From IMG/VR virus record IMGVR_UViG_3300031998_000004: a stretch of 64,000 bases of DNA; one strand, given 5' to 3'. This DNA comes from a virus (Duplodnaviria > Caudoviricetes). Made by a program: the position numbers and the translations under genes. This document shows, piece by piece, positions 165 through 44,364 of this stretch (within the stretch, counting starts at the first letter, position 1; each line of letters begins with the position of its first letter). Under the pieces are notes generated by a model. That model saw nothing but the letters and a program-made list of their open reading frames with translations, was not told the DNA's origin and did not search any database.

Positions 165-434
165 ATGAAGGATATTAAACAATATATACTTGAACGAGAC
201 GCTAATACCCTCCCCGCTCGTATCACAGTAGATGATGATAAGGAGAAGGGTATCTTGAAGGTTTCTTTTGGAAAGAATGGTTGGGGTTTGAGTAATGAGT
301 TCTCACAGATTGGAGAGATCGTCCAGGAGTACTCGAGACAGAATAACATCTATATCAGAAAATGTATCATTGACGAACTTGATGATGTATATGATATAGA
401 GTTTACGTATTCAAATAAACACTTTAACGACTGA
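165..434 (+). CDS. hypothetical protein, putative internal head protein
   Basis: N-terminus MKDIKQYILE resembles T4 capsid-targeting sequence (MKTYQEFIAE). Confidence 0.6.
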   Translation: MKDIKQYILERDANTLPARITVDDDKEKGILKVSFGKNGWGLSNEFSQIGEIVQEYSRQNNIYIRKCIIDELDDVYDIEFTYSNKHFND

Positions 435-922
435 TGAAAAGCTTACAGGAAAGTCTATTTGACAAAGACATAATCCAGAACTCTGATGTCAGACTTGGGG
501 AACTCTATGAGATATCTCCTGTCATTCACTACTGTGGTGTTACCAACAACATCCGTGAGGTGTTGGGGATGTTTGATGAGAAGGCTTGGGCTCGCGCAAA
601 GTGGCCTCTTCACGTTCGCGAAGATTGTAGTTTTATTGAATACTGGTCGGATATTGAACCAAGGAGACTTGTTCCTTTTATAAATATGTTCTTCAATCTC
701 CCGATGTCAGACATTAATAAACTCTTTGAAAAACCATCTACTGGAAGCGAGCATCTTGCAAAGTGTCTTGAGAAGTATTATTCATATCATGGTGCGAAAG
801 CAAAGCACATCTATATTGTTGGCCGAAAATTAGATAAAGATAGACTTATTGAAATAACAGTGTATAAGGATATTCTCGTTCCTAGTCCGAGTAGTATAAA
901 ATTAACATTTGAGAAACGATGA
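434..922 (+). CDS. MKxLxE-SLFD family protein, putative internal head protein
   Basis: MKSLQESLFDKDII; full-length paralog of next gene (both end PSSIKLTFEKR). Confidence 0.75.
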   Translation: MKSLQESLFDKDIIQNSDVRLGELYEISPVIHYCGVTNNIREVLGMFDEKAWARAKWPLHVREDCSFIEYWSDIEPRRLVPFINMFFNLPMSDINKLFEKPSTGSEHLAKCLEKYYSYHGAKAKHIYIVGRKLDKDRLIEITVYKDILVPSPSSIKLTFEKR

Positions 923-1413
923 AAACTCTAATGGAAAGTCTACAAGAAAGTCTATTTGACAAAGACATAGTAAAGGGCTCTGAGGTAAAACTTGGAGAAC
1001 TTTATGAGTTGTCTCCTGTTAGACACCATAATATGGTAATTAACAGTATACATAAAGTCCTCAATATGTTTGATGAGAAAAAATTGAAGAAAGAGAATTT
1101 TACTTTTAAGACAAACAGAGATCATGATTTCATAGACCTTTATGGATATCACACATGCATTGCTGAGTTTGTTGATATGATTCTTAATATACCTATGCAA
1201 GATATCAATAAGATATTCGAAGAACCATACAATGGAAACAAGCATATCGCTTCTACTATCGAGAAGTACTATTCAAACGGTGGATATTATGCAAAAAACA
1301 TTTATATAGTAGGTAGAAAACTTAGTGCGGGAAAATTGATTGAACTCACAGTATATGAGAATATCAATAATAGTTCTCCATCAAGCATAAAATTAACATT
1401 TGAAAAACGATGA
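919..1413 (+). CDS. MKxLxE-SLFD family protein
   Basis: MKTLMESLQESLFDKDIV; ATGA overlap; paralog of 434..922. Confidence 0.75.
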   Translation: MKTLMESLQESLFDKDIVKGSEVKLGELYELSPVRHHNMVINSIHKVLNMFDEKKLKKENFTFKTNRDHDFIDLYGYHTCIAEFVDMILNIPMQDINKIFEEPYNGNKHIASTIEKYYSNGGYYAKNIYIVGRKLSAGKLIELTVYENINNSSPSSIKLTFEKR

Positions 1414-1985
1414 AGACATTATCGGAAAGTCTATTTGATAATAATTTAGTAGAGAAAGATATACTTGAGAATCCCGAGTTTAAGAAATGGATTAATCAAC
1501 CGAATACTCTTTGGTATATTTATTATTACTGGGAGTGTGGGGAAGAAGATTGGTTAAATGATTTCATGAAAGAAGATTGGCGAGTATACAAACCACTTGT
1601 TGATGAATTGTTGGAAATAATAACTAATTCTATGGGTAAGGTGTATACTTGGTATATGATTAATTTAGATCAATTTTATTATTCCGATGAGGTAAAAGAC
1701 AAGTTTGCTGATGAGGCTGAGTTTTATGATATGATGAATGACGCGAACTCCATAATTATTCATAGTCGCTCGGAGACAAAAGATGGAATATCGAAATCTG
1801 GTTTTCGTGGTCCTCTTCCGAAAAACAGCAGTGTGACTGCTCTTCTTCAACAACTTGAAGAGAAATTTACAAAACCCGGGCTTGTTGACGGAGGATTTTT
1901 CCTCACTAATGAAGATACTATAATAGTACTAGCGTTTCCAAAAAGAACCCCAAAAAATATACTTAAATTATTTAATCTCGATTAA
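1410..1985 (+). CDS. MKxLxE-SLFD family protein
   Basis: MKTLSESLFDNNLV; ATGA overlap. Confidence 0.75.
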   Translation: MKTLSESLFDNNLVEKDILENPEFKKWINQPNTLWYIYYYWECGEEDWLNDFMKEDWRVYKPLVDELLEIITNSMGKVYTWYMINLDQFYYSDEVKDKFADEAEFYDMMNDANSIIIHSRSETKDGISKSGFRGPLPKNSSVTALLQQLEEKFTKPGLVDGGFFLTNEDTIIVLAFPKRTPKNILKLFNLD

Positions 1986-2194
1986 TGATACCGATCAAAT
2001 CATATATGGCTGATGCTCTTGTAGGGAAACGATTACACTTCAGGTGCGATTGTCTCCTAAACATAGACGTAGTCGGAACAGTCAAAGGGTGGAGCCTGTA
2101 TCATGATGAGATTATATGGGATGTGTATACCGATGAAGGTAAGTTTATTAGGATTGGTGAGAATCATCCAAATATGTTTATAAATGAATTGTAG
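1985..2194 (+). CDS. small hypothetical protein
   Basis: ORF packed between family genes with stop/start overlap. Confidence 0.6.
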   Translation: MIPIKSYMADALVGKRLHFRCDCLLNIDVVGTVKGWSLYHDEIIWDVYTDEGKFIRIGENHPNMFINEL

Positions 2195-2198
2195 CAGC

Positions 2199-2774
2199 AT
2201 GAAAACCTTACGAGAAAGCTTGTTTGATAAAGATATAATCGAGAAAGACCCAATTGATTTTACTGAGTTTAAGAATCTTTGTAAGAGACCCGAGACTCGT
2301 GCGGATATATTTAAGATTATCATGGCTATTATGATGACTCCGAATAATTACATACCCGATTGGTACATAACTACTTATAAAGAAAATGATAGAGTCCTGG
2401 ACTATATTATTAATGCTTTGCGTGATCAATTCAAAAAGAATGGTTGTACTTGGTTTGATGTTGAAGATGGAGACTTCGAAGAAGCTGGTGATGAGATGAC
2501 TGATGAGGAAATCGACAAGGCAAACGAATGGTTAAGAGAGTTCTTCAATAAAGCAATAGAAGATGATTGTGGATGTAGGTTTAAGATATGTAAAGGTAAG
2601 ATTCCAGACTTCCTCAAAAAACTCTTCAAAAATACAGGGTATTGGTTCGATAAACTGAATCAGATAGATACTTGGGCTGTTGGGTATTATAGAAATGGAG
2701 AACAAATCCTATCATTCTATGGCTGTCCAAAAGGTCTCGATCCTACCGTTAAAAAACTATTATATAATCAATGA
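2199..2774 (+). CDS. MKxLxE-SLFD family protein
   Basis: Start re-assigned to MKTLRESLFDKDII. Confidence 0.75.
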   Translation: MKTLRESLFDKDIIEKDPIDFTEFKNLCKRPETRADIFKIIMAIMMTPNNYIPDWYITTYKENDRVLDYIINALRDQFKKNGCTWFDVEDGDFEEAGDEMTDEEIDKANEWLREFFNKAIEDDCGCRFKICKGKIPDFLKKLFKNTGYWFDKLNQIDTWAVGYYRNGEQILSFYGCPKGLDPTVKKLLYNQ

Positions 2775-3322
2775 AGACTCTCAGAGAAAGCCTGTTTGAT
2801 GATAATCTTGTATCAAAAGATATAAGATTGGGAGATCTGTATGAGTTGGAGTTTGTTCATTTACAAAGTCCTTATTGTTTTAATAAACTATATACAAAAA
2901 GAATTATCTCACAGAATTCGAAATTGGCTGACGAAAAGGACCTTAAGAAATATTGGTATTATTATGGTTCGGATAAGAATTATAAAACCCCACCACCAGA
3001 GATGGAAGCCGTGAGTAATGTAATTATTGGAGAAATAGAAAAATTTCCAATGTATAAAGCACAAGGCGAACCACGAGGAAATGGGTTTTTGTATGTGTTT
3101 ATTCAAGGACCAGATGACCCGTTTTCTAATGCACTGAGACAATATTTACACGAATTTATAGACCCATATATTGTTGCGATGCAACCACATCGGATTTATG
3201 TGGATACTAATTATAAGTATCATAAACAAGAAGGATACATTCAAGTTAAAATTGGTAAAAACACAAATCGAGGAAGATCAAGTATTCCAGATAGTATAGA
3301 ATTTGTATTTAGAAAAAAATGA
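2771..3322 (+). CDS. MKxLxE-SLFD family protein
   Basis: MKTLRESLFDDNLVSKDIRLGDLYEL; shares the LGxLYEL block with 434, 919 and 3975. Confidence 0.75.
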   Translation: MKTLRESLFDDNLVSKDIRLGDLYELEFVHLQSPYCFNKLYTKRIISQNSKLADEKDLKKYWYYYGSDKNYKTPPPEMEAVSNVIIGEIEKFPMYKAQGEPRGNGFLYVFIQGPDDPFSNALRQYLHEFIDPYIVAMQPHRIYVDTNYKYHKQEGYIQVKIGKNTNRGRSSIPDSIEFVFRKK

Positions 3323-3978
3323 AACACTTAAAAACATATATAGAATGTGATGCTGGAATCACCGCGACTCCCACAAATACCATGGGTATGGGTAATCCAG
3401 GAGAGATCGCTCCAGACACTCTTTCCGAACCCATCGGTGGAACAGCGAAGTCTGAAGTGGAGAAGAAAAAGAAAAAGAAGAAAATGAAGTCTCTGGCGGA
3501 ATCTCTTTTCGATATTGACAATAATGTTACAAACGACTTAACTTTTGGTGGAACATTTAAGTTGGTTAATATAGAAACAAAAGACTCATTATCTAGGCCA
3601 GGACATGGACAAACTAGAGGCAGAATGGTGAAAATGAAAAGTAAACCTGAGGATATGTACAAGGTGAGTTTAATATCAAAACACTCTGGCTTGAAGGTCA
3701 ATAAAGATATGGAGTCAATAGCAGCTGCTCTAGCTGTTATAGTTGAGAAAATCCCATTTACTGCTGAGTCTATAAAAATGTCTTTATATGATTTTTCTCA
3801 AACAACTTTAAAACCACTCAAACAATACTATTCATCTAATGTAGGAGCTGGATATTTGAGTATGGGTGCTGATGTATATGCACACACACCAGACTGGAAG
3901 AGAGATGTCGATGTGTTAGATGCCCATGAAGTGGATATAGATTTCTTGAACATAAAATTACACTACGTTAAAAAATGA
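3319..3978 (+). CDS. double-leader protein (MKHLKTYIE...K7-MKSLAESLFD)
   Basis: CTS-like start plus an in-frame internal family start at 3484. Confidence 0.7.
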   Translation: MKHLKTYIECDAGITATPTNTMGMGNPGEIAPDTLSEPIGGTAKSEVEKKKKKKKMKSLAESLFDIDNNVTNDLTFGGTFKLVNIETKDSLSRPGHGQTRGRMVKMKSKPEDMYKVSLISKHSGLKVNKDMESIAAALAVIVEKIPFTAESIKMSLYDFSQTTLKPLKQYYSSNVGAGYLSMGADVYAHTPDWKRDVDVLDAHEVDIDFLNIKLHYVKK

Positions 3979-4502
3979 AGACATTAGTGGAGAGTTTATT
4001 TGACGACAATATTAAAAAAGACATCCATCTCGGAGACTTACTCGAACTCGAAAAATGGGATACACCAGAGGCATGGGATGACGATATAATATCTAAAATG
4101 TTGAGAGCAAACTACGATATGAAGAAAGCAAAATCCCTCATAAACAAACCCAAGTGGAAGAAGTTTTTAGAACCATATCGTGATGAATATAAAAAACCCC
4201 CAACTAATTATATTAATGCTAAATACAATTGGGAAACGATTTGTTGGTATTTGACTTGGGTGGCGCTGAGTTGTGGTTCTGGAAAAGAAGCAGAGACAAA
4301 ACTTGTAGAATATTTGAAAGATATATCTTACGAAGATGAATTGGCTGATGAATTCACAATCAATGAGGTGGAAGTAATATCTCTTAATCGATCATTTATG
4401 AACGGGCTACCAAGAATGATAGTATTCAAGTTCCATACGAGATACGACAATATAAAAGAAGGAGTTAAAATACTTTATATGACATTAAAAAAGAAGGACT
4501 AA
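3975..4502 (+). CDS. MKxLxE-SLFD family protein
   Basis: MKTLVESLFDDNIKKDIHLGDLLEL. Confidence 0.75.
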   Translation: MKTLVESLFDDNIKKDIHLGDLLELEKWDTPEAWDDDIISKMLRANYDMKKAKSLINKPKWKKFLEPYRDEYKKPPTNYINAKYNWETICWYLTWVALSCGSGKEAETKLVEYLKDISYEDELADEFTINEVEVISLNRSFMNGLPRMIVFKFHTRYDNIKEGVKILYMTLKKKD

Positions 4503-4747: not shown

Positions 4748-5158
4748 CTAACACCCATGCGCATATTTACCGAAACGTTTGTATAAAATAGTCGAAATCT
4801 TCTTTTTAACGTCTCGGTTCACCTGATAGTAACGTTTCTGGTTGTAAACCAAGCAAGGAAGTTCCAGACCCCTGATAGTCTCTTCAAAGACCGGGTAAAG
4901 ATGATATGTATCCATTCCGGGTACATCTCCATACATTGAACGAAAGATACTATGTTCTTCTTTGAAGGTCCCCGTAGGAATCTTGGTGGTCTTCTTTGCT
5001 CCCCAAAATAATTTTTTCTGTCTGGGAGTTAACGCAAATGAACCCTCACGCGGAATCAGGGTACTACCACTGTTGGATATCTTATAGTTCTTAAGGATCA
5101 TCTTATCGCTCTCTGCCTGGAGCTGTTTGGGATCAAGGTGGTTGTCAAATACACTCAT
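4748..5158 (-). CDS. MS[ILV]F-tag family hypothetical protein
   Basis: MSVFDNHL. Confidence 0.75.
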   Translation of the reverse strand: MSVFDNHLDPKQLQAESDKMILKNYKISNSGSTLIPREGSFALTPRQKKLFWGAKKTTKIPTGTFKEEHSIFRSMYGDVPGMDTYHLYPVFEETIRGLELPCLVYNQKRYYQVNRDVKKKISTILYKRFGKYAHGC

Positions 5159-5161
5159 ATT

Positions 5162-5587
5162 CTAAAATTTATAAATTTTCTTATGTTGAAAGGCTCTTCT
5201 TCTTATTACTTGAGAGATCCAATATTCATTAAATGCATTATATAAAGGCCAAAGTACCGCTTTATCAAAATAAATTTGATTCTTAAAAATCAGTTTTCTT
5301 ATGTCCGGGTGTCCAAACCCATGTGCGAATTTAGAAAAATCCCATTCCGAAGGAAGATCATAATTATCAAGCATCCTTGCTATATCAGCAACACCTTCAT
5401 TCATATAAAAATCCCAAACAACACTTATTGGAACAAACATCCTACCAGAGCGGCTCCTAAGCGCATCAGTAAATGTTCCAGACTTCTCTACTAAAACAAT
5501 TGCTCCATAATCGGTTGAAAAAAACCAATTGTAATGCTCAAGAATGAAGTCGTCTTGATTGGTGATATGATCACTAAATATACTCAT
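5162..5587 (-). CDS. MS[ILV]F-tag family hypothetical protein
   Basis: MSIFSDHI (start re-assigned). Confidence 0.75.
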   Translation of the reverse strand: MSIFSDHITNQDDFILEHYNWFFSTDYGAIVLVEKSGTFTDALRSRSGRMFVPISVVWDFYMNEGVADIARMLDNYDLPSEWDFSKFAHGFGHPDIRKLIFKNQIYFDKAVLWPLYNAFNEYWISQVIRRRAFQHKKIYKF

Positions 5588-5595
5588 ATATTTAA

Positions 5596-6033
5596 TTACC
5601 AAATAACTTCAGAATCTTTAAGTATATATAAAAACAATTGCTCCGCAAGATGACTCATCATTCCATGAGGAATAATATAGAAAGGAGTATCTTTGTATGT
5701 AATAAATTCACCAATATCACTAAATAACTTCATCGGATATATAACAACGCCCACATTATGTTCTTCTAGTTCCCGTTCGACTATAAATTTAAATTGCTCA
5801 TCAGTAATCTTCCCAATATATCCCGGACACATAGTATATATAATGTTCATCAATTCATCAAAACAAAGTAATCTCTGACCATTATATTCTTTTTCATATT
5901 CGCGACGTGGAAGAAGTTCAACAATAGTGCAGTGTCCTTTTCCGTCCGGCCCCACAGCTGGTATAAACCTTTGATTTATTAAACGGTATTCGGCTTCTTT
6001 GTCATACCCGTCTATTGAAGAAAATATACTCAT
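5596..6033 (-). CDS. MS[ILV]F-tag family hypothetical protein
   Basis: MSIFSSID. Confidence 0.75.
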   Translation of the reverse strand: MSIFSSIDGYDKEAEYRLINQRFIPAVGPDGKGHCTIVELLPRREYEKEYNGQRLLCFDELMNIIYTMCPGYIGKITDEQFKFIVERELEEHNVGVVIYPMKLFSDIGEFITYKDTPFYIIPHGMMSHLAEQLFLYILKDSEVIW

Positions 6034-6500
6034 TTCTTATGCGTGCGTTTGAAATACTTCGAGTTACACGTTTCTTTGGATATATAATTAAACATCGTCT
6101 CAATGATTCTATTTTTAAGACTAGATGGATTGGCATCATACAAATCGGTTTTAATATAGGTGTCTCCTTTATATTGCAAAACGCCACACTCCGTAATCAT
6201 TCTATTAAATCGAACCATAAGATTTCCCTCGTCCAGTTTACTTAATTCAATCTTGCCTCTGTCTTTTTTCGAGACAATATCTCGTATACTATCGAGTGTT
6301 CTACCTACATAGTAAAAGAAAACATACATCGGGTTATAATATACACTACCATGAGGATAACTAAACTTACCATCAAGATTTTTAGGAAAGAGTCCTTTCC
6401 GAATCCTTTTCCCCTTCACATAATCCCATTCGAGATTGTAAAGCTGCTCGATAGTATCATCGTTGGTTGCCTGGATGTTGTCGTTGCCAAATATACTCAT
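6030..6500 (-). CDS. MS[ILV]F-tag family hypothetical protein
   Basis: MSIFGNDNI. Confidence 0.75.
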   Translation of the reverse strand: MSIFGNDNIQATNDDTIEQLYNLEWDYVKGKRIRKGLFPKNLDGKFSYPHGSVYYNPMYVFFYYVGRTLDSIRDIVSKKDRGKIELSKLDEGNLMVRFNRMITECGVLQYKGDTYIKTDLYDANPSSLKNRIIETMFNYISKETCNSKYFKRTHKK

Positions 6501-6503
6501 GAC

Positions 6504-6962
6504 CTACTTATAATCGTAATTAAGTTTATACTTATATATCGGATATATACTACTTATATACTTTGCAAAGGACCTAATCAACCAATAATGATTTTGTTTT
6601 TCGTAATATTTGTGTTTTTTGTAAGTGATGTATTTTCCGTTTTCAATATCCTGAAAAAAGATCTTTTCAAGATCACGGATATGCCTCAACTCAACGTGTT
6701 TTCTAACCTTAATGTTTGCTGCTCCTTTTTTGTGAGATGTTCGAAGATCTATTTCAATCATCGTAACAGCCCCCTGATATATATCCCAAAAGTCAGTATT
6801 TCTCTTATCTACATACTCTACACCATCATATCTTATAGACCACACATCATTATATGCAGGGTCTTCACTCTTGAAAAAACTGTATCTTTTCATCTGGTCC
6901 GCGTGTTCTTCAAGAAAGGCGTCGTTAATTCCTTCTTCGGTTGTTCTATCAAATACACTCAT
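6504..6962 (-). CDS. MS[ILV]F-tag family hypothetical protein
   Basis: MSVFDRTT. Confidence 0.75.
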   Translation of the reverse strand: MSVFDRTTEEGINDAFLEEHADQMKRYSFFKSEDPAYNDVWSIRYDGVEYVDKRNTDFWDIYQGAVTMIEIDLRTSHKKGAANIKVRKHVELRHIRDLEKIFFQDIENGKYITYKKHKYYEKQNHYWLIRSFAKYISSIYPIYKYKLNYDYK

Positions 6963-6965
6963 ATC

Positions 6966-7424
6966 TTATTCAAGTGGTCCGTCCCAATGGAACTTGTGTT
7001 TCTCACAATACTTTAAAATCAAGTTAATTTCATACATGGTATGAAAACTACGAACATCCCGCCAACAAAAATAGAGGAGCCCTTTGTACATATGCGCTCT
7101 TATTTCTCCATTATCATATGCCTTTTGAATAGCTCGGAGGTAGTGTCTTTTATCTATACGAATATTAGAAAATTCCTCTACATGATACTGTTTTGCCATC
7201 TTATAGGTTCTCCAAGGCCTCCAATCATTATACGCAGCTATAGCAGTGCAGTAATCTCCGCGATCCCATATATCATGGGGTGCTTTGTTCATTCTTGGAT
7301 ATAACCATCCATCGCTCCTACCCCATGCACCATTCCACAAGGGAGCGTCCGAGTCCTCAGATCTTTCGTACCACTGGCTAAGGATTTCGTCAGATTCTAC
7401 TATATGATTGGTAAATATACTCAT
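6966..7424 (-). CDS. MS[ILV]F-tag family hypothetical protein
   Basis: MSIFTNHI. Confidence 0.75.
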   Translation of the reverse strand: MSIFTNHIVESDEILSQWYERSEDSDAPLWNGAWGRSDGWLYPRMNKAPHDIWDRGDYCTAIAAYNDWRPWRTYKMAKQYHVEEFSNIRIDKRHYLRAIQKAYDNGEIRAHMYKGLLYFCWRDVRSFHTMYEINLILKYCEKHKFHWDGPLE

Positions 7425-7819
7425 AGTCCGTGATGTCTTAAAATTATGTCTCTATCCATATCGTTTTCAAAACGACATAAATCTCCAACATTGTAATAAG
7501 TCTCTCCATTCAGAATCAGGATTCTAACATCACCGCTGGCTACCTTTCTGGAGAGTTTGTTGATATAAGTCTGTCTTCTAGGTTGATAGCTGATTCGGAA
7601 CCCAGCAAAGTAGTTTCGTTTTCCGGCGAGATAAGTCTCCCAAGCTTCTTCAAGTATAATATAAGAAGTGTGTTTGTATGTGGAGCCACGATCTCCCTTA
7701 TCGATAAGGTAAGTCCGGTCTTCTCTCTTACCACGATCAACATTGGTATAATATCCCAACTCGAACTTTTCGAGAATTATATCGTCTGCTTTGGCTATAT
7801 GATCTTCAAATACACTCAT
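7421..7819 (-). CDS. MS[ILV]F-tag family hypothetical protein
   Basis: MSVFEDHI. Confidence 0.75.
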   Translation of the reverse strand: MSVFEDHIAKADDIILEKFELGYYTNVDRGKREDRTYLIDKGDRGSTYKHTSYIILEEAWETYLAGKRNYFAGFRISYQPRRQTYINKLSRKVASGDVRILILNGETYYNVGDLCRFENDMDRDIILRHHGL

Positions 7820-7944: not shown

Positions 7945-9036
7945 TTAGAAAGGAAGATCCTCACCAGGAGCAGCACCGAAAGCGGTCTCTATCTGTGCTT
8001 CGGGAGAAGCGGGAGCTTCTGCTACAGCAGCACCGGCTTCAATGAGAGGGTTGCCCTGCTTGAAATCCTCGTAAGAGATGTTCTCAGGATTCTTACCAGC
8101 AAGAACAATCTCAATCCACTGATTGACTTTCTTCTCGGTATTCTCATCCCATTCCTTCCAACCACACTCCTGACGGAGATCAAACGCATTCTCCTTTACA
8201 TAATTGTAAGCAATCTCGTAAAGAGGACGGAGCTGAGGACGAAGTGCTTCAAGCTGGTTAGCAGCTGCCTTACGCTTGGCTTCGGTCTTTGCACCAGTGC
8301 TATCCTTGATAGCAGTTACATAGTTGTCAATCACCTCGAGCTGCTCTTCGGTGAAGAGAGGAGTACCATCAGTCTTGATGATAGGTGCGTAATCACCAAA
8401 ATCACAGAGATTGTAGTTAATCTCACGCTGCTTACGCTGAGGATTTGCAGGGTCATCCGGACCAGGAACAACCTCCATGTTGAGTTCGAGACCAATAACA
8501 TAATCCATTACAGGATAAGGGGTCTTCTTGGAGTCCTTACTCGGAGCCATGCGTGCCTTGAGCTTATCATGAATTGCCTGGGGAAGCTTCATTGCCATGA
8601 ACTTACCAACGAGATCCGGCTTATTCTCATCTTCGAGAATCTGTACGATCACATAGTCGCTTTCATTTTTCTGGAAAAGACTCTTTGCACGTTCCTTCTC
8701 GGCATCGTCTCCTGAAAACCATAGCTTCTTCCACGCCCTAAAAATCGGACAGTTTTTAAACTCCGGGTCGCTCGGTCCATTACCAAGGCGACTTCTTACG
8801 AGCATGCTTCCGTCTGCACTCTTAAGAAAATAAGTTGCCTGATGAACGATTGAGTCCTTGGGTGCGGTAGGATTATACACCACTCGCGCCTTACTGAGAT
8901 AGTGACCAGACTCCGACTTGGTGTCCTTGGGATTAGTCTTGTAGATGTTAGCGTCATAGGAACGCTGCTCGGGTTCGTTGAATGCGGATACATCCTGAGG
9001 ATTGAAACCCATTACCTCATCAATAAAATCTGCCAT
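7945..9036 (-). CDS. single-stranded DNA-binding protein, T4 gp32-like
   Basis: CPI..AW..LW, vQILEDENKPDLVGK motifs of gp32-like SSBs; acidic/Ala-rich tail ending EDLPF. Confidence 0.75.
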   Translation of the reverse strand: MADFIDEVMGFNPQDVSAFNEPEQRSYDANIYKTNPKDTKSESGHYLSKARVVYNPTAPKDSIVHQATYFLKSADGSMLVRSRLGNGPSDPEFKNCPIFRAWKKLWFSGDDAEKERAKSLFQKNESDYVIVQILEDENKPDLVGKFMAMKLPQAIHDKLKARMAPSKDSKKTPYPVMDYVIGLELNMEVVPGPDDPANPQRKQREINYNLCDFGDYAPIIKTDGTPLFTEEQLEVIDNYVTAIKDSTGAKTEAKRKAAANQLEALRPQLRPLYEIAYNYVKENAFDLRQECGWKEWDENTEKKVNQWIEIVLAGKNPENISYEDFKQGNPLIEAGAAVAEAPASPEAQIETAFGAAPGEDLPF

Positions 9037-9123
9037 AATTTGTTTAATTTATTTGAACTAATTTATTTGGTTAATTGTTGAAAATTGGCATTTCCAACTC
9101 TTTAAATAATATAGTAAAAATTG

Positions 9124-10902
9124 TCAATTATTTAATTTTAAAATGTATTTTGTTTGTCCGCTATCATAGATTCTATAGTATCCTTTTGCTTTCATTATTT
9201 CAAACTCCGATTCACTTGGATTTTCGCCATTTTTTACCAATTCAGACTTTCTAAATTTAAATCTATGATATCGATTCATGTCTTTATCAATATACCAATA
9301 TGAGTGTTTTGTAATTGATAAATAAGAAAATCCAAGAGTTTTATATAATTCTCCATTACTTATATCATTAGAAGAAAATGATTCAATAGAATTTGGATGA
9401 TAATTATTAATAAAATACTTTAATAATTTACTTGCTCCTCCTGCTATACTTGTATTTAATTTATTACAAAATCTATATAATTCCCAATCATTTTGTTTAC
9501 CTTTATTACCTAGAGATCCTCTCTTTTTTCCAAAGGCCATTAATGATACCAATTCATCGCCATAATACAAACCAACACGGATGGAAGAATTTACGTACCC
9601 TTGTAGATGATTATCATTTAAAAATTTTAACGCATCAGAATTTGACACTATTTTAATATTGCATTTTCTAGCATATATCTTTCTTTGATATAATCCCAGG
9701 TTATGTAATAATATAGATTCTACTATATTGGGTTTATTTAATATTTGATCCTCCCAAAATGACAATAATTTAATACCAATTTCTCGACATTTTTTCCATT
9801 TATTATAATGATAATTACTATCTTTTAATGAATGCCAATAAATACCATTACATTCGATCGCAATATTGTGTTCCGGGATAAATATATCTAATTCTTTCCC
9901 ATTTAATATACTTTTATTATTTGTCTCATAAAATACATTATATTTGTCGAGAATATCTCTTATAAATAATTCTATAGTAGTTCCTTTATTAGTATTGCCG
10001 GGACATAACACAACACATAACTCTCTATTTTCATAATTTCTTACAAAGTATTTATCATAGGGAATAATAAATTCTTTTTCATTACATTTATTGCATTCTG
10101 GATGGGGACATTTACATTTAAAAAATTTACCGTCGAAATTTTCAATCCTATCAATTATTATATCAGAATTATTAATATGGTTTTGAATTCTTGTTTGTTT
10201 TGACTTATCATTCAATTCTTTATTTTGAAGAGGATATATTGAGCCATATTTTTTAAGACGGGTTTGTTTGCCTTTTTCCTGTATTTCTTGAGATTGAAAT
10301 GGATACTCTACTCCGAATTTTTTTAAATTATTCTGTTTAATTAATTCCAAATTAATATAATTTTCATCTCCGTATTTCTCTAATTTAGTATGTTTTGCTT
10401 TTTCAATAATTTTTTGTTTCTCCTCATCTGAACGAGTAGAAACTGTTTCATTTATTTTCTCTCGAATCTTCTTGTTAGACAAAGGAAACTCACACCCATA
10501 TTTTTCTAAACATGTTTTTTTGCGCTTTTCTAATATAATATCATTGTAGTTTTCTCCATATCTATCAATCATGGTTTGTTTACATCTATTAACAAACCCA
10601 TTATCCATTAGATATCTCTCTTTAAACGTTTCTTTTTGTTTCCGTAGTTTTTCTTTATCCGTATTTGCACAGTTAGAACAACAATATTTACCATACCCAT
10701 GAGAATATGATATGAAATTAAGTTTTTTACCACAATTTAAACAAACCGAATCTTTATCAATATGATATACATATTTGTATAATTTTTCGGCAAACACCCC
10801 ATCAAAATTGTCCATCAAGTATTGATAAAATTCCGGATAGTTCTTTTTTATAAAAGATTCGGTTCTTTGCCCTCGAGTATTAAATGTTTCGGGTATGATC
10901 AT
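9124..10902 (-). CDS. Hef-like free-standing homing endonuclease (PD-(D/E)xK-type)
   Basis: KxTxLxKYG repeats; ELDIFIPEHNIAIECNGIYWHS nuclease motif; C-terminal ELYRFC..GGASKLL domain; very AT-rich. Confidence 0.75.
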   Translation of the reverse strand: MIIPETFNTRGQRTESFIKKNYPEFYQYLMDNFDGVFAEKLYKYVYHIDKDSVCLNCGKKLNFISYSHGYGKYCCSNCANTDKEKLRKQKETFKERYLMDNGFVNRCKQTMIDRYGENYNDIILEKRKKTCLEKYGCEFPLSNKKIREKINETVSTRSDEEKQKIIEKAKHTKLEKYGDENYINLELIKQNNLKKFGVEYPFQSQEIQEKGKQTRLKKYGSIYPLQNKELNDKSKQTRIQNHINNSDIIIDRIENFDGKFFKCKCPHPECNKCNEKEFIIPYDKYFVRNYENRELCVVLCPGNTNKGTTIELFIRDILDKYNVFYETNNKSILNGKELDIFIPEHNIAIECNGIYWHSLKDSNYHYNKWKKCREIGIKLLSFWEDQILNKPNIVESILLHNLGLYQRKIYARKCNIKIVSNSDALKFLNDNHLQGYVNSSIRVGLYYGDELVSLMAFGKKRGSLGNKGKQNDWELYRFCNKLNTSIAGGASKLLKYFINNYHPNSIESFSSNDISNGELYKTLGFSYLSITKHSYWYIDKDMNRYHRFKFRKSELVKNGENPSESEFEIMKAKGYYRIYDSGQTKYILKLNN

Positions 10903-10951: not shown

Positions 10952-11347
10952 TCACCACTTCATAGGATCAAAATTATTAATTTTCTGTTCCTCTCTAACA
11001 ATCAATTTGCTTGGGATATTGACATTCAATATTTCAACATATCGAGAAATCCATAAAATGTTCTCCCTCCCATTAACATGATCAACAATCGCTACTGTAA
11101 TATTAACATTCCAGTGATCATTATAATCGTGTACAATCATCTTGGGATAACGATAATCACATTCCTCTAAATTACTATATGTATGATTAGCATAGAATAA
11201 ATTATTGAATACGTTTGCAATCCTCTCCGGATCAAACATACAATAATTAGCAGTCTCTGAGAAATGTCCCAAAATCAACCCTCTCATTTGTGACACTATC
11301 TTCTCAAGAGTTATTTCATTGGTTATATTATTATCAAATATACTCAT
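10952..11347 (-). CDS. MS[ILV]F-tag family hypothetical protein
   Basis: MSIFDNNI. Confidence 0.75.
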   Translation of the reverse strand: MSIFDNNITNEITLEKIVSQMRGLILGHFSETANYCMFDPERIANVFNNLFYANHTYSNLEECDYRYPKMIVHDYNDHWNVNITVAIVDHVNGRENILWISRYVEILNVNIPSKLIVREEQKINNFDPMKW

Positions 11348-11601
11348 ACAAAGGGGACTTTCGATTATAACAATAAAACATCTCCCATCTCTTCAATCCG
11401 TTCAATCCGCTCATAAAGCAACTCTTGTTCTATAAGATCTGGATTAAACTGGGATATATACGGTATTAATAAATTCATCTAATATGAACTCATAGTTACC
11501 AGTACCATCCCAAGGACAATAGGGATCATCAAATAGTTCAGCAATTAAACCAATACACTTTACCCTCATACGTCCAAAATTATATTTTTTCAATTGTCAT
11601 C

Positions 11602-11814
11602 CTATTCATCAAGGCTCAAGAAAAATGTCTTCGTTGTATCTAGAATCATGGGCGAATACATCATAGACGCATATACAGGAGCTCGCTTACCGCCTTTTGT
11701 AGACCAATGACCAATATCAGTGGTTGCCCATATCAGGTCTCTTAATTCCTCCATGGTCTTTACTCGTCTGATATCAGATTCATCTTGAATCAAGTCTGGA
11801 TTAAATATACTCAT
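11602..11814 (-). CDS. MS[ILV]F-tag family protein, possibly truncated
   Basis: MSIFNPDLI; short, followed by 250 bp of fragmented frames. Confidence 0.6.
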   Translation of the reverse strand: MSIFNPDLIQDESDIRRVKTMEELRDLIWATTDIGHWSTKGGKRAPVYASMMYSPMILDTTKTFFLSLDE

Positions 11815-12104
11815 CTAAATTCTACTGGTTCTTCTATATTAAATTTTTGATGATTAGGCCATGTTGGCTGGGTAACCTCGAGCTTCAAATGACCGAATCC
11901 CTCCCTATAACAAACTATATGCAAATGCGAATATGCCTGTTGAACTCGTCGAACTATTTTCTTTACAGCCAATCCCGGATTATAACCAATATCATACATA
12001 ATCCCTTCCGTGAGATTAAAGCCAAACTCCTCTTCACATAACATTTCAAAGTACGTTTGTGGGTCTGGTAGGGTCTGGATTATGTCTTTATCAAATATGC
12101 TCAT
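11811..12104 (-). CDS. MS[ILV]F-tag family hypothetical protein
   Basis: MSIFDKDII. Confidence 0.75.
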   Translation of the reverse strand: MSIFDKDIIQTLPDPQTYFEMLCEEEFGFNLTEGIMYDIGYNPGLAVKKIVRRVQQAYSHLHIVCYREGFGHLKLEVTQPTWPNHQKFNIEEPVEFR

Positions 12105-12556
12105 TGTATATACTTTTCTCGAAGCTCTTTATACTTTTCTCGAAACTCTTGAACTTGTTTTGCAACAAGATCTAAAGTCTCTTCTGGTATTTGAAGAACT
12201 ATGTGTTGTAATTGTAAGTTCCCTCGTAATCTGTAACTTACTATCAAGTATTCTTGTATAAGTGGTTTCGAATTATCCTGTTCTTTACATATGTCGTATT
12301 CAATCAGGTTGGCAAAAGGTCCTTTCCAATCGGTTGGTGGAGTGGGCTCTGTACATAAATTCGACATATATTGATCTAGGACATACGACAGAAACCCTGA
12401 AGGACTAACCGCAGGCGGTGAAGTTAGTTGAGGTTCATTCATATACACATCCACAAGTCTATTAAATTCTTGTTGGATTTGTATCCCTACGTTATCAACC
12501 ACATACGGGCTATATCCCAAGTCCTTTGAAACTATATCTTTATCGAATAGGCTCAT
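12101..12556 (-). CDS. MS[ILV]F-tag family hypothetical protein
   Basis: MSLFDKDIV. Confidence 0.75.
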   Translation of the reverse strand: MSLFDKDIVSKDLGYSPYVVDNVGIQIQQEFNRLVDVYMNEPQLTSPPAVSPSGFLSYVLDQYMSNLCTEPTPPTDWKGPFANLIEYDICKEQDNSKPLIQEYLIVSYRLRGNLQLQHIVLQIPEETLDLVAKQVQEFREKYKELREKYIQ

Positions 12557-12915
12557 ATCGTTTGTAGTGGAGTAAACTTAAAATTATAAAGTTCTGTATG
12601 TATTGGCCCTTCAAGATTCTGTTTATAATACCGGATATCAACAACAATATCTAATCCCGCATGTCCATATTTGTGTGGAAGGAGTGTAATGTGGAAGTCA
12701 TTAACGTCTAAATCATTTCTTTCAAAAACCTGCTCATAATTACTTCTAACCAAATTCCGCAATATTTCTTCCATAAAAACAATTCCCCAGAACTTACCTT
12801 TGACCACATAATCATTAATCCATATTGCCATCTGTGCATGGATATGTTTCTTTATTTCCTCAAACATCTCTTCTACGGAAGTTTTGTTGGATATGTTTTC
12901 GCTAAATATACTCAT
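12553..12915 (-). CDS. MS[ILV]F-tag family hypothetical protein
   Basis: MSIFSENI (start re-assigned). Confidence 0.75.
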   Translation of the reverse strand: MSIFSENISNKTSVEEMFEEIKKHIHAQMAIWINDYVVKGKFWGIVFMEEILRNLVRSNYEQVFERNDLDVNDFHITLLPHKYGHAGLDIVVDIRYYKQNLEGPIHTELYNFKFTPLQTI

Positions 12916-12917
12916 AT

Positions 12918-13412
12918 TCAATACAAATAGAAATAGGAATAATTCCAATCTGTGACTTTTTCTTTTAGACAATTCATATCCTTATCGAAACGAAGAATTA
13001 CTTCGCCTGTGGGTTCACATGAGCTCTCAATTTCATCTTTCATTCGTTGACGAGCTTCTGATATTTCAGCCCAACCAAGAGTATTCATTTTGTGTGAGTA
13101 ACGCGCCCTGATATGTTCTTCCTGACTATCAGAAACTTTAATTACAATGTAAAGTTCTCCGTCTATATATCGGTATTTTCCAAAAGAACCAATATAAGCG
13201 TCAGCGTCAGGCACATACAAATTATATTTTGGTAAGAGTTCATAACACCAATCATTAATTTTGTTGTAATTAAGATTTGCTCTGTTATTATCTCTGTTTC
13301 TGATAAAATATGATTTGTATGAGTCAATCTTTGCTCTCAAAGCAAGCATAAACTGAAACTTTCTTTTTACGTCTAACCGACGTTCAATTATGTTTTCACT
13401 AAATAACCCCAT
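12918..13412 (-). CDS. MS[ILV]F-tag family protein (Gly variant)
   Basis: MGLFSENII. Confidence 0.75.
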   Translation of the reverse strand: MGLFSENIIERRLDVKRKFQFMLALRAKIDSYKSYFIRNRDNNRANLNYNKINDWCYELLPKYNLYVPDADAYIGSFGKYRYIDGELYIVIKVSDSQEEHIRARYSHKMNTLGWAEISEARQRMKDEIESSCEPTGEVILRFDKDMNCLKEKVTDWNYSYFYLY

Positions 13413-13415
13413 ATC

Positions 13416-13862
13416 TTAAATCGTCCACCATTCGTGTTTAAGTTTTTCTATATTGTATTCCAACACCTTTCCATACTGATTAAGAACAATGTGGATGTTT
13501 CCATAGTTCTCCCAATAATTTTCATCACCGAAGCCGCTATAGTCATCCGTAGGGATAGTAATAAAGTAATACCCGTCTTTCCACTCAACCCAGGGATATT
13601 CTGTTTTATAGTCAAACCTCCTATCTTTGGGATCATACATCTGTCCTTCGACACATAATATATTATTATATTTTGTGCTATTCTTAATACTTACAATATA
13701 CATAAATATAAGATTACACACATTTGCTGGTCCATGAGTCTTTCTTGTTGCAAGAATATCTTTGCGATGTGCCTGTAACTTATCAATCACACTAAAGCAA
13801 AACTGATCGATGAGAGGAACGTGTACTTCTTTCTCGATTATGTCACTATCAAATAGACTCAT
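13416..13862 (-). CDS. MS[ILV]F-tag family hypothetical protein
   Basis: MSLFDSDII. Confidence 0.75.
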   Translation of the reverse strand: MSLFDSDIIEKEVHVPLIDQFCFSVIDKLQAHRKDILATRKTHGPANVCNLIFMYIVSIKNSTKYNNILCVEGQMYDPKDRRFDYKTEYPWVEWKDGYYFITIPTDDYSGFGDENYWENYGNIHIVLNQYGKVLEYNIEKLKHEWWTI

Positions 13863-13910
13863 GTATTAAATCAACTTTATTGATCGATTCAAACTCTGTT
13901 TGAATTTATA

Positions 13911-14264
13911 TTAACAAAACTTCACAAAATATATAGATTTTATTCTCCCGTTACTTCCCATTTGTATCTTCCACTTTACCCATACACCATACTTGCTATA
14001 GATGCGTTGTACTGTATTGTCAAGCGATTCTTGCCATGATTTGGGAAGATGCTTCATATTATGAAACATTTTTTTAATATCCTTTTTACTGTATGGTGGT
14101 GTATCAGAACTATCTACATCGATGAAATGACCACTCGTACGATCCCACGCGGTTTGAAATCCGCGTCTCTTGAGGTATTCGCGAGCAAGAATGTCATAAC
14201 AAACATTATTCCAATTGGTGTCTTTTGGAATAGAAGGGGTGATGTTATTAGTGAATATTCCCAT
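13911..14264 (-). CDS. MS[ILV]F-tag family protein (Gly variant)
   Basis: MGIFTNNI. Confidence 0.75.
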   Translation of the reverse strand: MGIFTNNITPSIPKDTNWNNVCYDILAREYLKRRGFQTAWDRTSGHFIDVDSSDTPPYSKKDIKKMFHNMKHLPKSWQESLDNTVQRIYSKYGVWVKWKIQMGSNGRIKSIYFVKFC

Positions 14265-14520
14265 TTGAGTATTTATCTATTAATTTATCAAGATTAGCAA
14301 ATTCGATTTTTTTCCAATATCCGTGTCGTCTAAATGGATCGACCCAATTAACATATACATCACTTTTTCTTAATTCTCCTATAATGTAATTCATTTTAGT
14401 GACACACATATTCTTATAAAGATCTCCATTCAGTTCATTGTATGTCTCCCCCCATCGTTTGAGATCAAGGAGTTTTTCAAGAACTGTTTCATTAGTTACG
14501 TTATCACCAAATATGCTCAT
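14248..14520 (-). CDS. MS[ILV]F-tag family hypothetical protein
   Basis: MSIFGDNV. Confidence 0.75.
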   Translation of the reverse strand: MSIFGDNVTNETVLEKLLDLKRWGETYNELNGDLYKNMCVTKMNYIIGELRKSDVYVNWVDPFRRHGYWKKIEFANLDKLIDKYSNGNIH

Positions 14521-14858
14521 AGACTAGGCACAGGAAGTTTAAGACAAAGAAACACATTATCTGGACTAGGAAGAAAGTCTTCTTGAGATTCTGAATAGAT
14601 TATAGATAAGGAAATCCTCGAAAAACAATTCTCATAAACTACATAATTCACAATTACCTCAGGATGATACATATTGAATTTATTAAAACGATATATCACC
14701 CCGCTCAGAGCGCGTTGGCAAGCTTTCTCGGTTTCTATTATATTCCCACCATTCTGTATAAAGAGAAGTTCAAAGTTATCAGTATACCACCTCTTGAGAA
14801 GATCATGAAACTTCTCCAACGGAGAAGGTGTAGTTATATTATCGTCAAATACACTCAT
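14517..14858 (-). CDS. MS[ILV]F-tag family hypothetical protein
   Basis: MSVFDDNITTPSPLEKF. Confidence 0.75.
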   Translation of the reverse strand: MSVFDDNITTPSPLEKFHDLLKRWYTDNFELLFIQNGGNIIETEKACQRALSGVIYRFNKFNMYHPEVIVNYVVYENCFSRISLSIIYSESQEDFLPSPDNVFLCLKLPVPSL

Positions 14859-15259
14859 AAGACCGGTTTTTGATGAATATCAAAATTCATATGAAGGAAT
14901 ATTTTTGCTTTGTCGTGTACATATATAGTAGGGTCATCGCCGTAGTAAAGAGTGACTTCTATATAGTATTTAGATTCTCCCGGATGTCGATCATAACGAG
15001 TGTGAAATGTTAAATGAACCCATGGCTGATAAATTTTATGCGCCTTGAACATGTCTTTGATCTTCTGCGATTCCCCTAACTCAGCGATACTATTTATATG
15101 TCCGTTAACCATAGCGTTAAATTCAGTTGCAGTCCATGATAGATTATAACTTGATTTTTCGTAGACGCAATAAAAATTTTCTTCGAGATAGGATTTTATA
15201 AAATCATAAAATTTCTCTAGCGGAGTTTTGTCTGTTATGTGTTCACTAAATACACTCAT
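14855..15259 (-). CDS. MS[ILV]F-tag family hypothetical protein
   Basis: MSVFSEHITDKTPLEKF; paralog of previous. Confidence 0.75.
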   Translation of the reverse strand: MSVFSEHITDKTPLEKFYDFIKSYLEENFYCVYEKSSYNLSWTATEFNAMVNGHINSIAELGESQKIKDMFKAHKIYQPWVHLTFHTRYDRHPGESKYYIEVTLYYGDDPTIYVHDKAKIFLHMNFDIHQKPVL

Positions 15260-15624
15260 TTTATTATTCCATTTATACCAACATTAAACTCACAAAGATA
15301 CTCTTGGTGTACATGCATGTCACCAGATGGTTTAGCATAATAAAAATATACAGTATATAGGGTTTTATGATTATGGCTGGTTTGAAATACTTCAAAACGA
15401 TATATTTTTTCATCGTTATTTTTTGGATCACTGCTATAATCGTAGCTATAATCATAAAACAACAATCTTTTACATACTAATTCCTGCCTGATATAGTAAT
15501 ACATCAATTGTTCATCAGCATTGTAGCGTATCATCTCTCTTGGAATGACTCTCCCTACAATCTCTTTACATTGATCGTAGAGTTCGTCAAGTGGGTGTTT
15601 GATATTATCACAAAACAGACTCAT
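15256..15624 (-). CDS. MS[ILV]F-tag family hypothetical protein
   Basis: MSLFCDNI; paralog of next (F.VGINGII). Confidence 0.75.
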   Translation of the reverse strand: MSLFCDNIKHPLDELYDQCKEIVGRVIPREMIRYNADEQLMYYYIRQELVCKRLLFYDYSYDYSSDPKNNDEKIYRFEVFQTSHNHKTLYTVYFYYAKPSGDMHVHQEYLCEFNVGINGIIK

Positions 15625-15988: not shown

Positions 15989-15996
15989 GTATTTAA

Positions 15997-16597: not shown

Positions 16598-16613
16598 GTA
16601 TTTAATTATCCTA

Positions 16614-25218: not shown

Positions 25219-25249
25219 CTATTTTATATGAAATCATAATTATATTAAC

Positions 25250-43086: not shown

Positions 43087-43089
43087 ATA

Positions 43090-43533
43090 TTATTCGTTTA
43101 TAATTCCGTATTCCTTAGCACAATTCCAGTTAATCTTAAATACATTATCATGATCAAGTAACCACACGTCAAAACCGAGGATTTTGAACTTATAAGTTAT
43201 CTTTTTAATCATCTTTTCACCAGTCGCCGTACCTTGATTGTATGGAGTTATTCCAAATATCTCAGCCGGAAAATCTGTAGTGAATCTACTTACACTTACA
43301 GTGTGATTGTCTAGTCCCAGCTTCACATAATAATATATATAAGATACTACATCATTTATAACGGAATCTATTGTTTCTTCAGGAATAAAATCAAGACATT
43401 GAAAGTCATCCCGGCTGTACATATAATCTACAGCGGAATGACCTATATTCTTACTCACACTATCATGCAGATTGAAAATTGTCTGTGCGGTGATAGTAGG
43501 AGATTCTATTATATCTTTATCAAAGAGACTCAT
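43090..43533 (-). CDS. MS[ILV]F-tag family hypothetical protein
   Basis: MSLFDKDII. Confidence 0.75.
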   Translation of the reverse strand: MSLFDKDIIESPTITAQTIFNLHDSVSKNIGHSAVDYMYSRDDFQCLDFIPEETIDSVINDVVSYIYYYVKLGLDNHTVSVSRFTTDFPAEIFGITPYNQGTATGEKMIKKITYKFKILGFDVWLLDHDNVFKINWNCAKEYGIINE

Positions 43534-43925
43534 GCGTCAGTAGAAATTCCACCACCGAGATCTGTCAGTGGACTTGCTACACCGTTCAACGGATTTTCAC
43601 TATCTCCGTCTTCCGGAAGTCTATATCCACAGAGACCAGCGAGCTCGTAACAACGATTATCCAACAGGGTCTTACACGACTCGCGAATAATCAAAAGCAC
43701 GTCGTTAGGGAGATCAATCTCAAGAGGGAAGTGCCAGAAGTTAGGGAGCCACCTGAGTTGGTACCCCACAGTCTTGACGAGCGTCGGACTCTCCCGCTTA
43801 AATTCAAATCCACTCTGATCCAGGAAGATCTGAATCTTCTCTATCTCTGCCGAGAGAGGAATCTCTGTCTTAAAAACATCAAATGCGTGTTTCCTGAGTT
43901 TCTTGATTTCGTTTTCTGTCCACAT
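43530..43925 (-). CDS. hypothetical protein
   Basis: ORF in co-oriented block (GTG start). Confidence 0.55.
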   Translation of the reverse strand: MWTENEIKKLRKHAFDVFKTEIPLSAEIEKIQIFLDQSGFEFKRESPTLVKTVGYQLRWLPNFWHFPLEIDLPNDVLLIIRESCKTLLDNRCYELAGLCGYRLPEDGDSENPLNGVASPLTDLGGGISTDA

Positions 43926-43944
43926 ATTATAAATTGTTTAATGG

Positions 43945-44364
43945 TTAATTTTCTTCTTCCCAATTGATTTCTATATACTTACCAAGCATCGTTGGGTCGT
44001 CATCGTATACGTCCCATTTTATTTTCATCTTGAATCCGCGTTCCTGAAAATATTTACAAAACTCAACGAACTTCGGTTCTAGGTCTTTCCCGTGAATACC
44101 CTTGTTATCATACATTAGTTTTTTCACGTTTGTCCCTTTCTTAAAAGCACTAGTTAATCCCAACGCTTTCGGACAAATCCTATGATAATAAACCACACGC
44201 GGAACGGAATACTTTACTTCATCGTAAATAACTCCCAATAGTTTATCACAAGTGGTCTCGAGAGGTTCTCCTTCTGGTGGAACCATCCGTTTACTTATGA
44301 GATCCCTCAGAAAACTTGCGGTGATGGGGTTATCCGCGTTTATATTATCGTTAAATATGCTCAT
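43945..44364 (-). CDS. MS[ILV]F-tag family hypothetical protein
   Basis: MSIFNDNI (start re-assigned); paralog of 43090..43533. Confidence 0.75.
   Translation of the reverse strand: MSIFNDNINADNPITASFLRDLISKRMVPPEGEPLETTCDKLLGVIYDEVKYSVPRVVYYHRICPKALGLTSAFKKGTNVKKLMYDNKGIHGKDLEPKFVEFCKYFQERGFKMKIKWDVYDDDPTMLGKYIEINWEEEN

Follow-up and report, generated by a model that had tools for sequence, protein, structure and literature searches.

The internal proteins (IPs) of bacteriophage T4 are a diverse set with only the capsid-targeting sequence (CTS) in common (PMC3012670). The CTS is 10 residues long, and the gp21 cleavage motif is L/I-x-E (PMC9026906). The CTS alone is sufficient, and targeting resides in its residues 4 and 7 (PMC9026906). 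T4 Alt has a propeptide of 6 residues that is cut at ITE-6 (PMC5694885). A different kind of short peptide is the gp45-clamp epitope of gp43, gp33, and gp55, a hydrophobic-acidic terminus on a flexible linker that is interchangeable among these proteins; the RB69 clamp has been crystallized together with the last 11 residues of the polymerase (PMC2988020). Here we analyze a 64,000-nucleotide stretch of viral DNA (the window; IMG/VR record IMGVR_UViG_3300031998_000004), which is part of a large phage, a distant T4 relative. The window encodes a large, fast-turnover repertoire of proteins with a two-part N-terminal code, consisting of an optional T4-type propeptide (the leader) and a retained, putative docking tag. 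The tag system is real and strong, and it is apparently undescribed. Its CTS half is of a known kind; the retained tag, the leaderless arrays, and the likeness to clamp-binding tails are new.

The full tag motif is [SG][ILV]F[DSNGTEC]x[DNH][ILV], and it always directly follows either the initiator Met or a leader ending in [LI]-x-E. The leaderless class comprises 28 minus-strand genes in three arrays of 7, 19, and 2 genes, exactly as the initial annotation of the sequence had listed them, and all 28 begin M-[SG]-[ILV]-F (26 S and 2 G) without a leader. About nine plus-strand genes beginning MKxLxE-SLF had also been proposed. Eight genes with MK[ST]LxE-SLF were found and the ninth is a loose match. 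The reported exact match between ESLFDKDII (at 434 and 2199) and MSLFDKDII (at 43533) holds. The genes are as follows, with a slash at the predicted cleavage site.

4748-7819, minus strand: array 1, seven leaderless tagged genes downstream of the gene for a gp32-like single-stranded DNA-binding protein (SSB), at 4748-5158, 5162-5587, 5596-6033, 6030-6500, 6504-6962, 6966-7424, and 7421-7819
10952-18142, minus strand: array 2, 19 leaderless tagged genes, bounded by the RNase H/FEN gene on one side and a homing endonuclease gene on the other, with gene ends (start codons) at 11347, 11814, 12104, 12556, 12915, 13412, 13862, 14264, 14520, 14858, 15259, 15624, 15988, 16209, 16597, 17009, 17377, 17706, and 18142
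43090-43533 and 43945-44364, minus strand: array 3, tagged genes that flank the untagged gene 43530-43925
434-922, plus strand: leader and tag, MKSLQE/SLFDKDII, founder of a family of 150-170 amino acids
919-1413, plus strand: doubled leader and tag, MKTLME-SLQE/SLFD, paralogue of 434-922 with 51% identity
1410-1985, plus strand: leader and tag, MKTLSE/SLFDNNLV
2199-2774, plus strand: leader and tag, MKTLRE/SLFDKDII
2771-3322, plus strand: leader and tag, MKTLRE/SLFDDNLV
3319-3978, plus strand: long propeptide with a CTS-like MKHLKTYIE start, the conserved TPxNTMGMGNPG, a poly-Lys run, and LAE/SLFD at residue 62
3975-4502, plus strand: leader and tag, MKTLVE/SLFDDNI
19480-19806, plus strand: leader and tag, MKQLTE/SLFDKDL, divergent from the RNase H/FEN gene, with an orthologue in L019
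20752-22179, plus strand: the loose case, MKHLPQFILE/SLFLEAN, 475 amino acids, in which the fit is limited to the first three tag residues
165-434, plus strand: leader only, MKDIKQYILE without a tag, heading the plus-strand operon with TATAAATA 35 nt upstream
19817-20251, plus strand: leader only, MKTIVEYINE without a tag

The position of the motif was examined in a census of 98 genes, with residues 1-25 taken as the N terminus. There are 30 N-terminal copies of the full motif and no internal ones, and shuffling gives an expectation of 0.3 internal occurrences. The bare four-residue motif is found internally at the chance level (8 compared to 7.5 expected). The 30 N-terminal against no internal full motifs exclude a chance origin. 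Tagged proteins from the window and its relatives were pooled into a set of 117, and the tag is N-terminal in all of them. Their bodies fall into 57 clusters by BLAST, and the Phe of the tag is invariant across these clusters (116/116). One further N terminus in the window is tag-like. The large terminase TerL begins MSSFNPIK (25250-25273, plus strand) and its close-relative counterparts MS[VI]FNPIK; over the window, L014, L019, and L001, the TerL start is MS[SVI]FNPIKED. The TerL start reads MKKKKEVFNPVK / MKKKKEVFNPVKED in the relative G001, and the TerL likeness is therefore weak evidence; it may be a coincidence or mark a further client of the tag's receptor.

The relatives come from a clade of giant T4-like phages in cattle-gut and rumen-type samples. 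G001 is a 97%-complete IMG/VR phage of 158.6 kb whose TerL is 61% identical to that of the window. In close relatives the RNase H/FEN homologue (rnh) is 77-90% identical, and in the more distant L025 and L026 it is 44-46% identical. Exact-protein look-ups found the same phage as the window in several metagenomes, on contigs up to 240 kb. The top terminase matches among GenBank phages are Tenacibaculum jumbo phages, at 32% identity only. No match to GenBank phages was obtained by megablast of 8 kb of the window (18142-26000) or by tblastn of the G001 tagged family. A scan of IMG/VR with the tag DNA pattern gave no match, and a homologue search for 17006-17377 retrieved only itself.

The codons of the tag were compared to determine the level at which it is conserved. 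The initial annotation had argued for protein-level selection from synonymous variation. Such variation is present in the window at AGT/AGC, GAT/GAC, and NAT/NAC, which interchange freely, but other sites are biased. Tag Ser is encoded by AGY in 33 of 33 cases (33% AGY genome-wide), 29 of 35 tags have A at the third position of codon 3 (about 42% expected even when TTT follows), Ile-8 is ATA in 18/24 (41% expected), and the Phe codon is TTT in 32/35. The AGY/TCN interchange requires leaving Ser, and the ATGA overlaps at 9 gene junctions of array 2 require an A-initial second codon, so these biases fit recent common descent. The relatives decide the matter in favour of selection on the peptide. 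In G001, the same peptide is encoded with both TCN and AGY Ser codons: tag Ser is TCA, TCT, TCG, or AGT and tag Leu is TTA, CTT, or CTC. Orthologues of 43090-43533 with 53% identity retain the tag. Across 67 orthologue pairs, residues 2-9 are 63% identical compared to about 40% for the bodies, next to an rnh gene that is 77-90% identical. The G001 codons and the excess of tag identity over body identity show that selection acts on the tag as a peptide, while the proteins that carry it evolve very fast elsewhere. A pure DNA-level signal was rejected as the sole explanation because the codons, TCN and AGY included, vary across the clade.

An AT-rich word, TAATTAAATA[CT], lies directly before the start codons at 5587, 13862, 15988, 16597, and 17706 (minus strand). 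This word may serve as a context for initiation or be what is left of a promoter.

The bodies behind the tag had been described as dissimilar. This is correct at the family level, as the 57 clusters show, but many members are tandem paralogues. An all-versus-all blastp of 36 window proteins without their tags detected only 5-6 paralogue pairs. In G001, the tag heads a single true paralogue family of 230-250 amino acids with seven leader-bearing members (MKNIKEYINE/SLFD.EDDLLDK.P) and two leaderless members, whose residue 2 aligns with residue 11 of the leader-bearing proteins. A database search with this family found 40 relatives, all metagenomic, and one subfamily is leaderless in many phages. 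Searches of Pfam and PHROGs with all 37 tagged proteins of the window gave noise-level matches only, with no toxin or immunity signatures, and the G001 tagged family likewise gave noise-level matches only. A hidden Markov model (HMM) of the G001-family bodies matched no window body. Profile-profile comparison (hhalign) of the G001 family with the 434-922 family aligned the leader and tag and nothing else, and the comparison with a third family aligned nothing. A structure search of the bodies had been suggested, and two AlphaFold models were made. The G001 family and the 434-922 family are both modelled with a predicted local distance difference test score (pLDDT) of 90, and the bodies have distinct folds. 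The searches with these models returned little: the G001-family model had no Foldseek match and only LRR-like VIA matches with Z 5-6, and the 434-922-family model had no match in PDB (best Z 3.8) or BFVD. Leader and tag are low-confidence in both models, with pLDDT below 50-60 (residues 1-17 in the 434-922 model), which indicates that they are disordered in the predicted structures. The unrelated bodies and the disordered leader-tag region show that the tag is a portable motif, though many copies arose by local duplication. A single diverged family was rejected as the sole explanation on the basis of the 57 clusters, the hhalign alignment confined to leader and tag, and the body HMM that found nothing.

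These data also bear on the idea that the tag has no common partner. The tag would then be only the part of a single ancient family that has changed most slowly, or a 5' gene-birth cassette, a start region serving translational coupling or recombination that new array genes acquire by inheritance. Several observations fit this idea. The G001 tagged proteins are one paralogue family whose leaderless members align to the leader-bearing ones, the arrays grow by tandem duplication and contain paralogue pairs, and the leader-tag unit is doubled in 919-1413, P0028, and P0066. The codon biases of the window and the nine ATGA-overlap starts, which force an A-initial second codon, are also compatible with it. 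However, the peptide is kept across the clade while its codons differ freely, and the Phe is invariant over all 57 body clusters, whose orthologues have an identity of only about 40%. Since both models place the tag outside the fold, its conservation is not accounted for by structural constraint. In the leader class the distance from the ATG to the same codons is 18-30 nt, which speaks against a signal at the start site. We consider the absence of a common partner quite improbable.

The leader has the properties of a T4-type propeptide, as the initial annotation had recognized. All 28 leader-bearing proteins have E at P1, 27 of them have L or I at P3, and at P1' there are 24 S and 4 G. The leaders are 6, 10, or 14 residues long, and the first two lengths are those of T4 Alt and the CTS. 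The T4 Alt record starts MELITE/LFDEDTTLPITNLY, and Alt homologues follow the pattern M..L.E/[VL][FL][DE]. A leader of about 6-20 residues that ends in the gp21 motif and is followed by a small residue is present throughout the leader class and absent from the 28 leaderless genes. Leader-only, leader-plus-tag, and tag-only proteins all exist, which means that leader and tag are separable modules.

The proposal that two routes lead to the same N terminus was evaluated in the long-propeptide family and in a sister lineage. The internal leader unit of 3319-3978 is KKKKKKKMKSLAE-SLFD, and in its orthologues a conserved propeptide, about 60 residues long, precedes the tag. In three of the five orthologues I or V replaces Met before L-[AS]-E/S, so only proteolysis could expose the tag in these proteins. 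The element T-P-x-N-T-M-G-x-G-[ND]-P-G and, after it, a poly-Lys run precede the tag in window 3319-3978, L019 18795-19490, L020 13308-13967, and L024 12346-13017; the element thus persists in a distant relative that lacks arrays. In the sister lineage L025/L026 the tag is [SG]LL[DN]K. Four genes carry it behind MKQLxxYFE and six directly after Met, and one leaderless protein is homologous in its body to leader-bearing ones. In L025 534-3110 and 16959-20330 and in L026 354-1173, the tag has the form [SG]-L-L-[DN]-K-x-x-K-x-S and is followed by a Ser-rich linker. The sequence layout, the Met-less members, and the recurrence in the sister lineage support two-route exposure as a design logic, with cleavage itself a prediction.

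A reader of free N termini would account for some of these features. The tag would then be a neo-N-terminal recognition motif, similar to an N-degron or an inhibitor of apoptosis protein (IAP)-binding motif, whose free Ser or Gly, uncovered by methionine aminopeptidase or by the prohead protease, is read by a host or phage receptor other than the clamp. In an established precedent, removal of Met uncovers the IAP-binding motifs of Reaper, Hid, and Grim, and cleavage of a presequence uncovers that of Smac. The first tag residue is S or G only in both classes (102 S and 14 G), as had been noted for the position after Met. The full motif is never internal, the tag is predicted to be disordered, and its juxtaposition to Met or [LI]-x-E is strict, including in the Met-less long-propeptide members. 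On the other side, descent through duplication of a 5' cassette also explains the N-terminal position, no candidate for the receptor was found, and known bacterial N-recognins read bulky hydrophobic first residues, not Ser. A non-clamp reader of this kind is unlikely, and so is the associated outcome, in which injected and early proteins would be degraded at a set time, stabilized, or recruited.

The leader also raises the question of packaging. G001 encodes a prohead protease of the S77 family, with a score above the Pfam cut-off, and the gene immediately upstream is tagged; the head module of the window's phage is outside the window. The G001 gene at 22789-24222 (the same as L012 481-1914, minus strand) fuses the S77 protease to a long, scaffold-like C-terminal region that is rich in repeats, about five of them of the form [FY]-S-P-x-[VI]-[QE]-x-W, and that is perhaps a scaffold with repeated docking sites. 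Complex prediction with this protease-scaffold and a member of the tagged family returned a score of 0.00 and "no answer", which counts neither way on binding. The prohead protease would remove the leader, which makes it probable that leader-bearing proteins are packaged and injected.

A capsid-core or ejection function might then extend to the tag itself. It would be the part of a bipartite Alt-type signal that the mature protein retains, and the leaderless proteins would be loaded into the prohead and injected as well. The tag abuts a CTS-like leader in 28 of 28 cases, the packaged and injected T4 Alt matures to LFDED..PIT, which resembles SLFDKDIIESPTIT of 43090-43533, and the tagged gene upstream of the G001 protease-scaffold gene occupies the position of T4 gp67/68. 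Against this, the T4 CTS suffices alone through residues 4 and 7, which the leaderless proteins lack (PMC9026906). The 28 leaderless genes belong to replication operons on the strand opposite to TerL and the leader-bearing genes, and retention of the tag suggests a role after cleavage. These points leave a capsid signal as a minor possibility.

The genome layout separates the two classes. Tag-only genes are always on the rnh/gp32 strand (81/81), and leader-bearing genes are always on the TerL strand (21/21). All close relatives have tagged arrays after rnh, and most also have them after gp32. Between rnh and gp32 there are 3-13 tagged genes in the close relatives and 19 in the window. In the more distant L024 and L028, rnh directly abuts gp32, and thus the arrays are lineage-specific expansions inside the replication cluster. 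Array 1 has orthologues in L015, L017, and L019, and the layout of array 2 recurs in other samples. The array 3 genes have an extended module in common, tag-x5-P-I-T-A, and L013 has four tagged genes at this position. The untagged gene 43530-43925 (minus strand) is replaced in L013 by two tagged genes (9056-10004), which indicates gene turnover in a conserved neighbourhood. The T4-type late-promoter word TATAAATA is not clearly enriched (18 compared to 9.6 expected) and does not separate the classes, so early or late timing is assigned from strand and neighbours only.

The tag was compared with the ends of replication proteins. The relevant feature of the window is the following.

18145-18165, minus strand: C-terminal tail of the RNase H/FEN homologue, ending in ESIFEEI, a tag-like hydrophobic-acidic end

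The RNase H/FEN tail is DIESIFEEI in the window and all close relatives and ESLFGGISL in the array-less L024. The family B DNA polymerase (PolB) ends in YIQMSLF in G001, SIQMNLFDF in G004, and HIEANLFDM in G003, and T4 gp43 ends in KASLDFLFG. The tag thus has the composition and the low pLDDT of a hydrophobic-acidic terminal peptide on an unstructured linker, and a motif of the same kind is at the terminus of the replicative polymerase in all three of these phages. The chemistry of the tag and its core (M/E-S-L-F-D) are the same as in PolB/gp43-type tails, which makes a clamp handle the single most likely reading. The closest match to the tag is the PolB tail, by which the phage polymerase would hold the clamp. 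The clamp had been one of several suggested partners, and the PolB and RNase H tails lend that suggestion sequence support, with binding still a prediction. We regard a general docking function of the tag as quite probable and name the sliding clamp only tentatively as its receptor. The full combination, in which a portable disordered N-terminal tag is displayed by two routes and acts as a sliding-clamp docking peptide, is put forward with the same reserve. As a separate observation, the PolB genes of G003 and G004 (L037/L039) have an endonuclease open reading frame inserted between the parts encoding the N-terminal region and motif C/thumb.

Several results weigh against a clamp handle. Known T4-type clamp epitopes are C-terminal, and the tag is N-terminal in 117/117 proteins. 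Tag positions 6-7 ([DN]-[IL]) have no counterpart in the PolB tail. Covariation of tag and tail across lineages was sought and none was seen where it was readable: the L025 lineage has the tag [SG]LL[DN]K yet its rnh tail is DLPF, and G003 has the PolB tail NLFDM yet its N termini read MSIL. No match to PF09116, PF02916, PF00712, or T4 gp45 (by phmmer) was detected in G001, G003, G004, or the window. In G001, the clamp-loader search gave no PF13177 match, no phmmer match to T4 gp44, and weak AAA matches only. A clamp epitope does not need to abut Met or a cleavage site, and this feature of the tag points to recognition of a free N terminus. Three synonymous sites are over-conserved in the window, so that recent descent or a further constraint at the RNA level also contributes. 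Timing and packaging are assigned by analogy. On the sequences, the clamp is a candidate partner only.

The docking-handle reading suggests the following mechanism. The tag heads a fast-evolving accessory repertoire that belongs to a single clade of large T4-like phages. Lineage-specific tandem arrays encode it directly after Met on the replication-gene strand. On the TerL strand it stands behind a T4-type propeptide, which has 6 residues like the Alt leader or 10 like the IP CTS. The prohead protease would remove the leader, and the leader-bearing proteins would probably be packaged and injected. Both classes would then present the same handle to one receptor. As with the T4 gp43, gp33, and gp55 tails, the handle would be a hydrophobic-acidic epitope carried by a flexible linker, and the arrays would form a "tool-belt" library that is brought to clamp-loaded DNA or competes for the clamp. 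In a more elaborate version, the handle of 7-8 residues would be an address code copied from the polymerase clamp tail onto more than 40 unrelated proteins per genome, which are injected after prohead-protease trimming or made early and freed of Met, with a single hub (the clamp on phage DNA or a free-N-terminus reader), swappable effectors, and different handles that co-evolved in the sister lineages. This version is doubtful as a whole.

If the tag is a docking handle, about one-third of the genes in the region belong to one functional system, and about 40 family-less proteins per genome become a readable effector library. The T4 capsid-targeting idea would be extended to a two-part code in which the leader specifies packaging and the tag specifies destination, and packaged and early-made proteins would have a common destination. 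With the sliding clamp as the hub, no larger viral set of clamp clients would be known, and no earlier one would have N-terminal epitopes. Leader and tag could also serve as a minimal cassette to bring cargo into such phages or onto the replication machinery.

The genes that neighbour the tagged arrays are listed here.

7945-9036, minus strand: gp32-like SSB
9124-10902, minus strand: homing endonuclease, 592 amino acids, DUF7487, PHROG 3339, between array 2 and gp32
18142-19236, minus strand: RNase H/FEN homologue (rnh)
25250-27103, plus strand: T4-type large terminase TerL

L015, L017, and L019 lack the homing endonuclease gene at the site that it occupies in the window, and L021 has a similar gene. 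The window also contains an RNA ligase gene, a GMP-reductase-like gene, and 19 tRNA genes. Amid the ordinary tRNAs, the gene at 55732-55805 (minus strand) is called tRNA-Stop with anticodon TTA (ochre suppressor type). Two small paralogues on the minus strand, 23465-23869 and 24051-24449, both start MITEDYVS[FL]E.AKLLKEKGF, and a third copy is at L020 217-585.

The system has partial likenesses to several known ones. Polymorphic toxins, such as MuF-fused phage head toxins, also combine a constant N-terminal address with swappable C-terminal domains in fast-turnover arrays. They differ in that the address here is an eight-residue disordered motif and not a folded domain, and the tagged proteins have no toxin or immunity signatures. 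IAP-binding motifs and N-degrons are a precedent for one N-terminal motif exposed by Met removal or by endoproteolysis of a presequence, but the precedent is eukaryotic and has no sequence relation to the tag. The T4/RB69 epitopes of gp43, gp33, and gp55, the PIP-box, and QL[SD]LF motifs are likewise short hydrophobic-acidic terminal peptides on flexible linkers. In contrast to the T4/RB69 epitopes, the tag is N-terminal, has the extra [DN]-[IL] positions, and is coupled to a protease site. T4 IPI-III (CTS MKTYQEFIAE) and Alt (MELITE) carry a short L/I-x-E leader on otherwise unrelated, fast-evolving accessory proteins, and the leader lengths of 10 and 6 residues recur here. Unlike in T4, a second module, the tag, stays after the predicted cut, it is also on dozens of leaderless replication-strand proteins with no T4 counterpart, and there are many more copies (at least 36 in the 64 kb window). 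The mature start of T4 Alt, LFDED..PIT, resembles the tag, and its P-I-T element is also in 43090-43533 and 43945-44364. Judged by sequence, the T4 Alt start is the closest known look-alike of the leader and tag.

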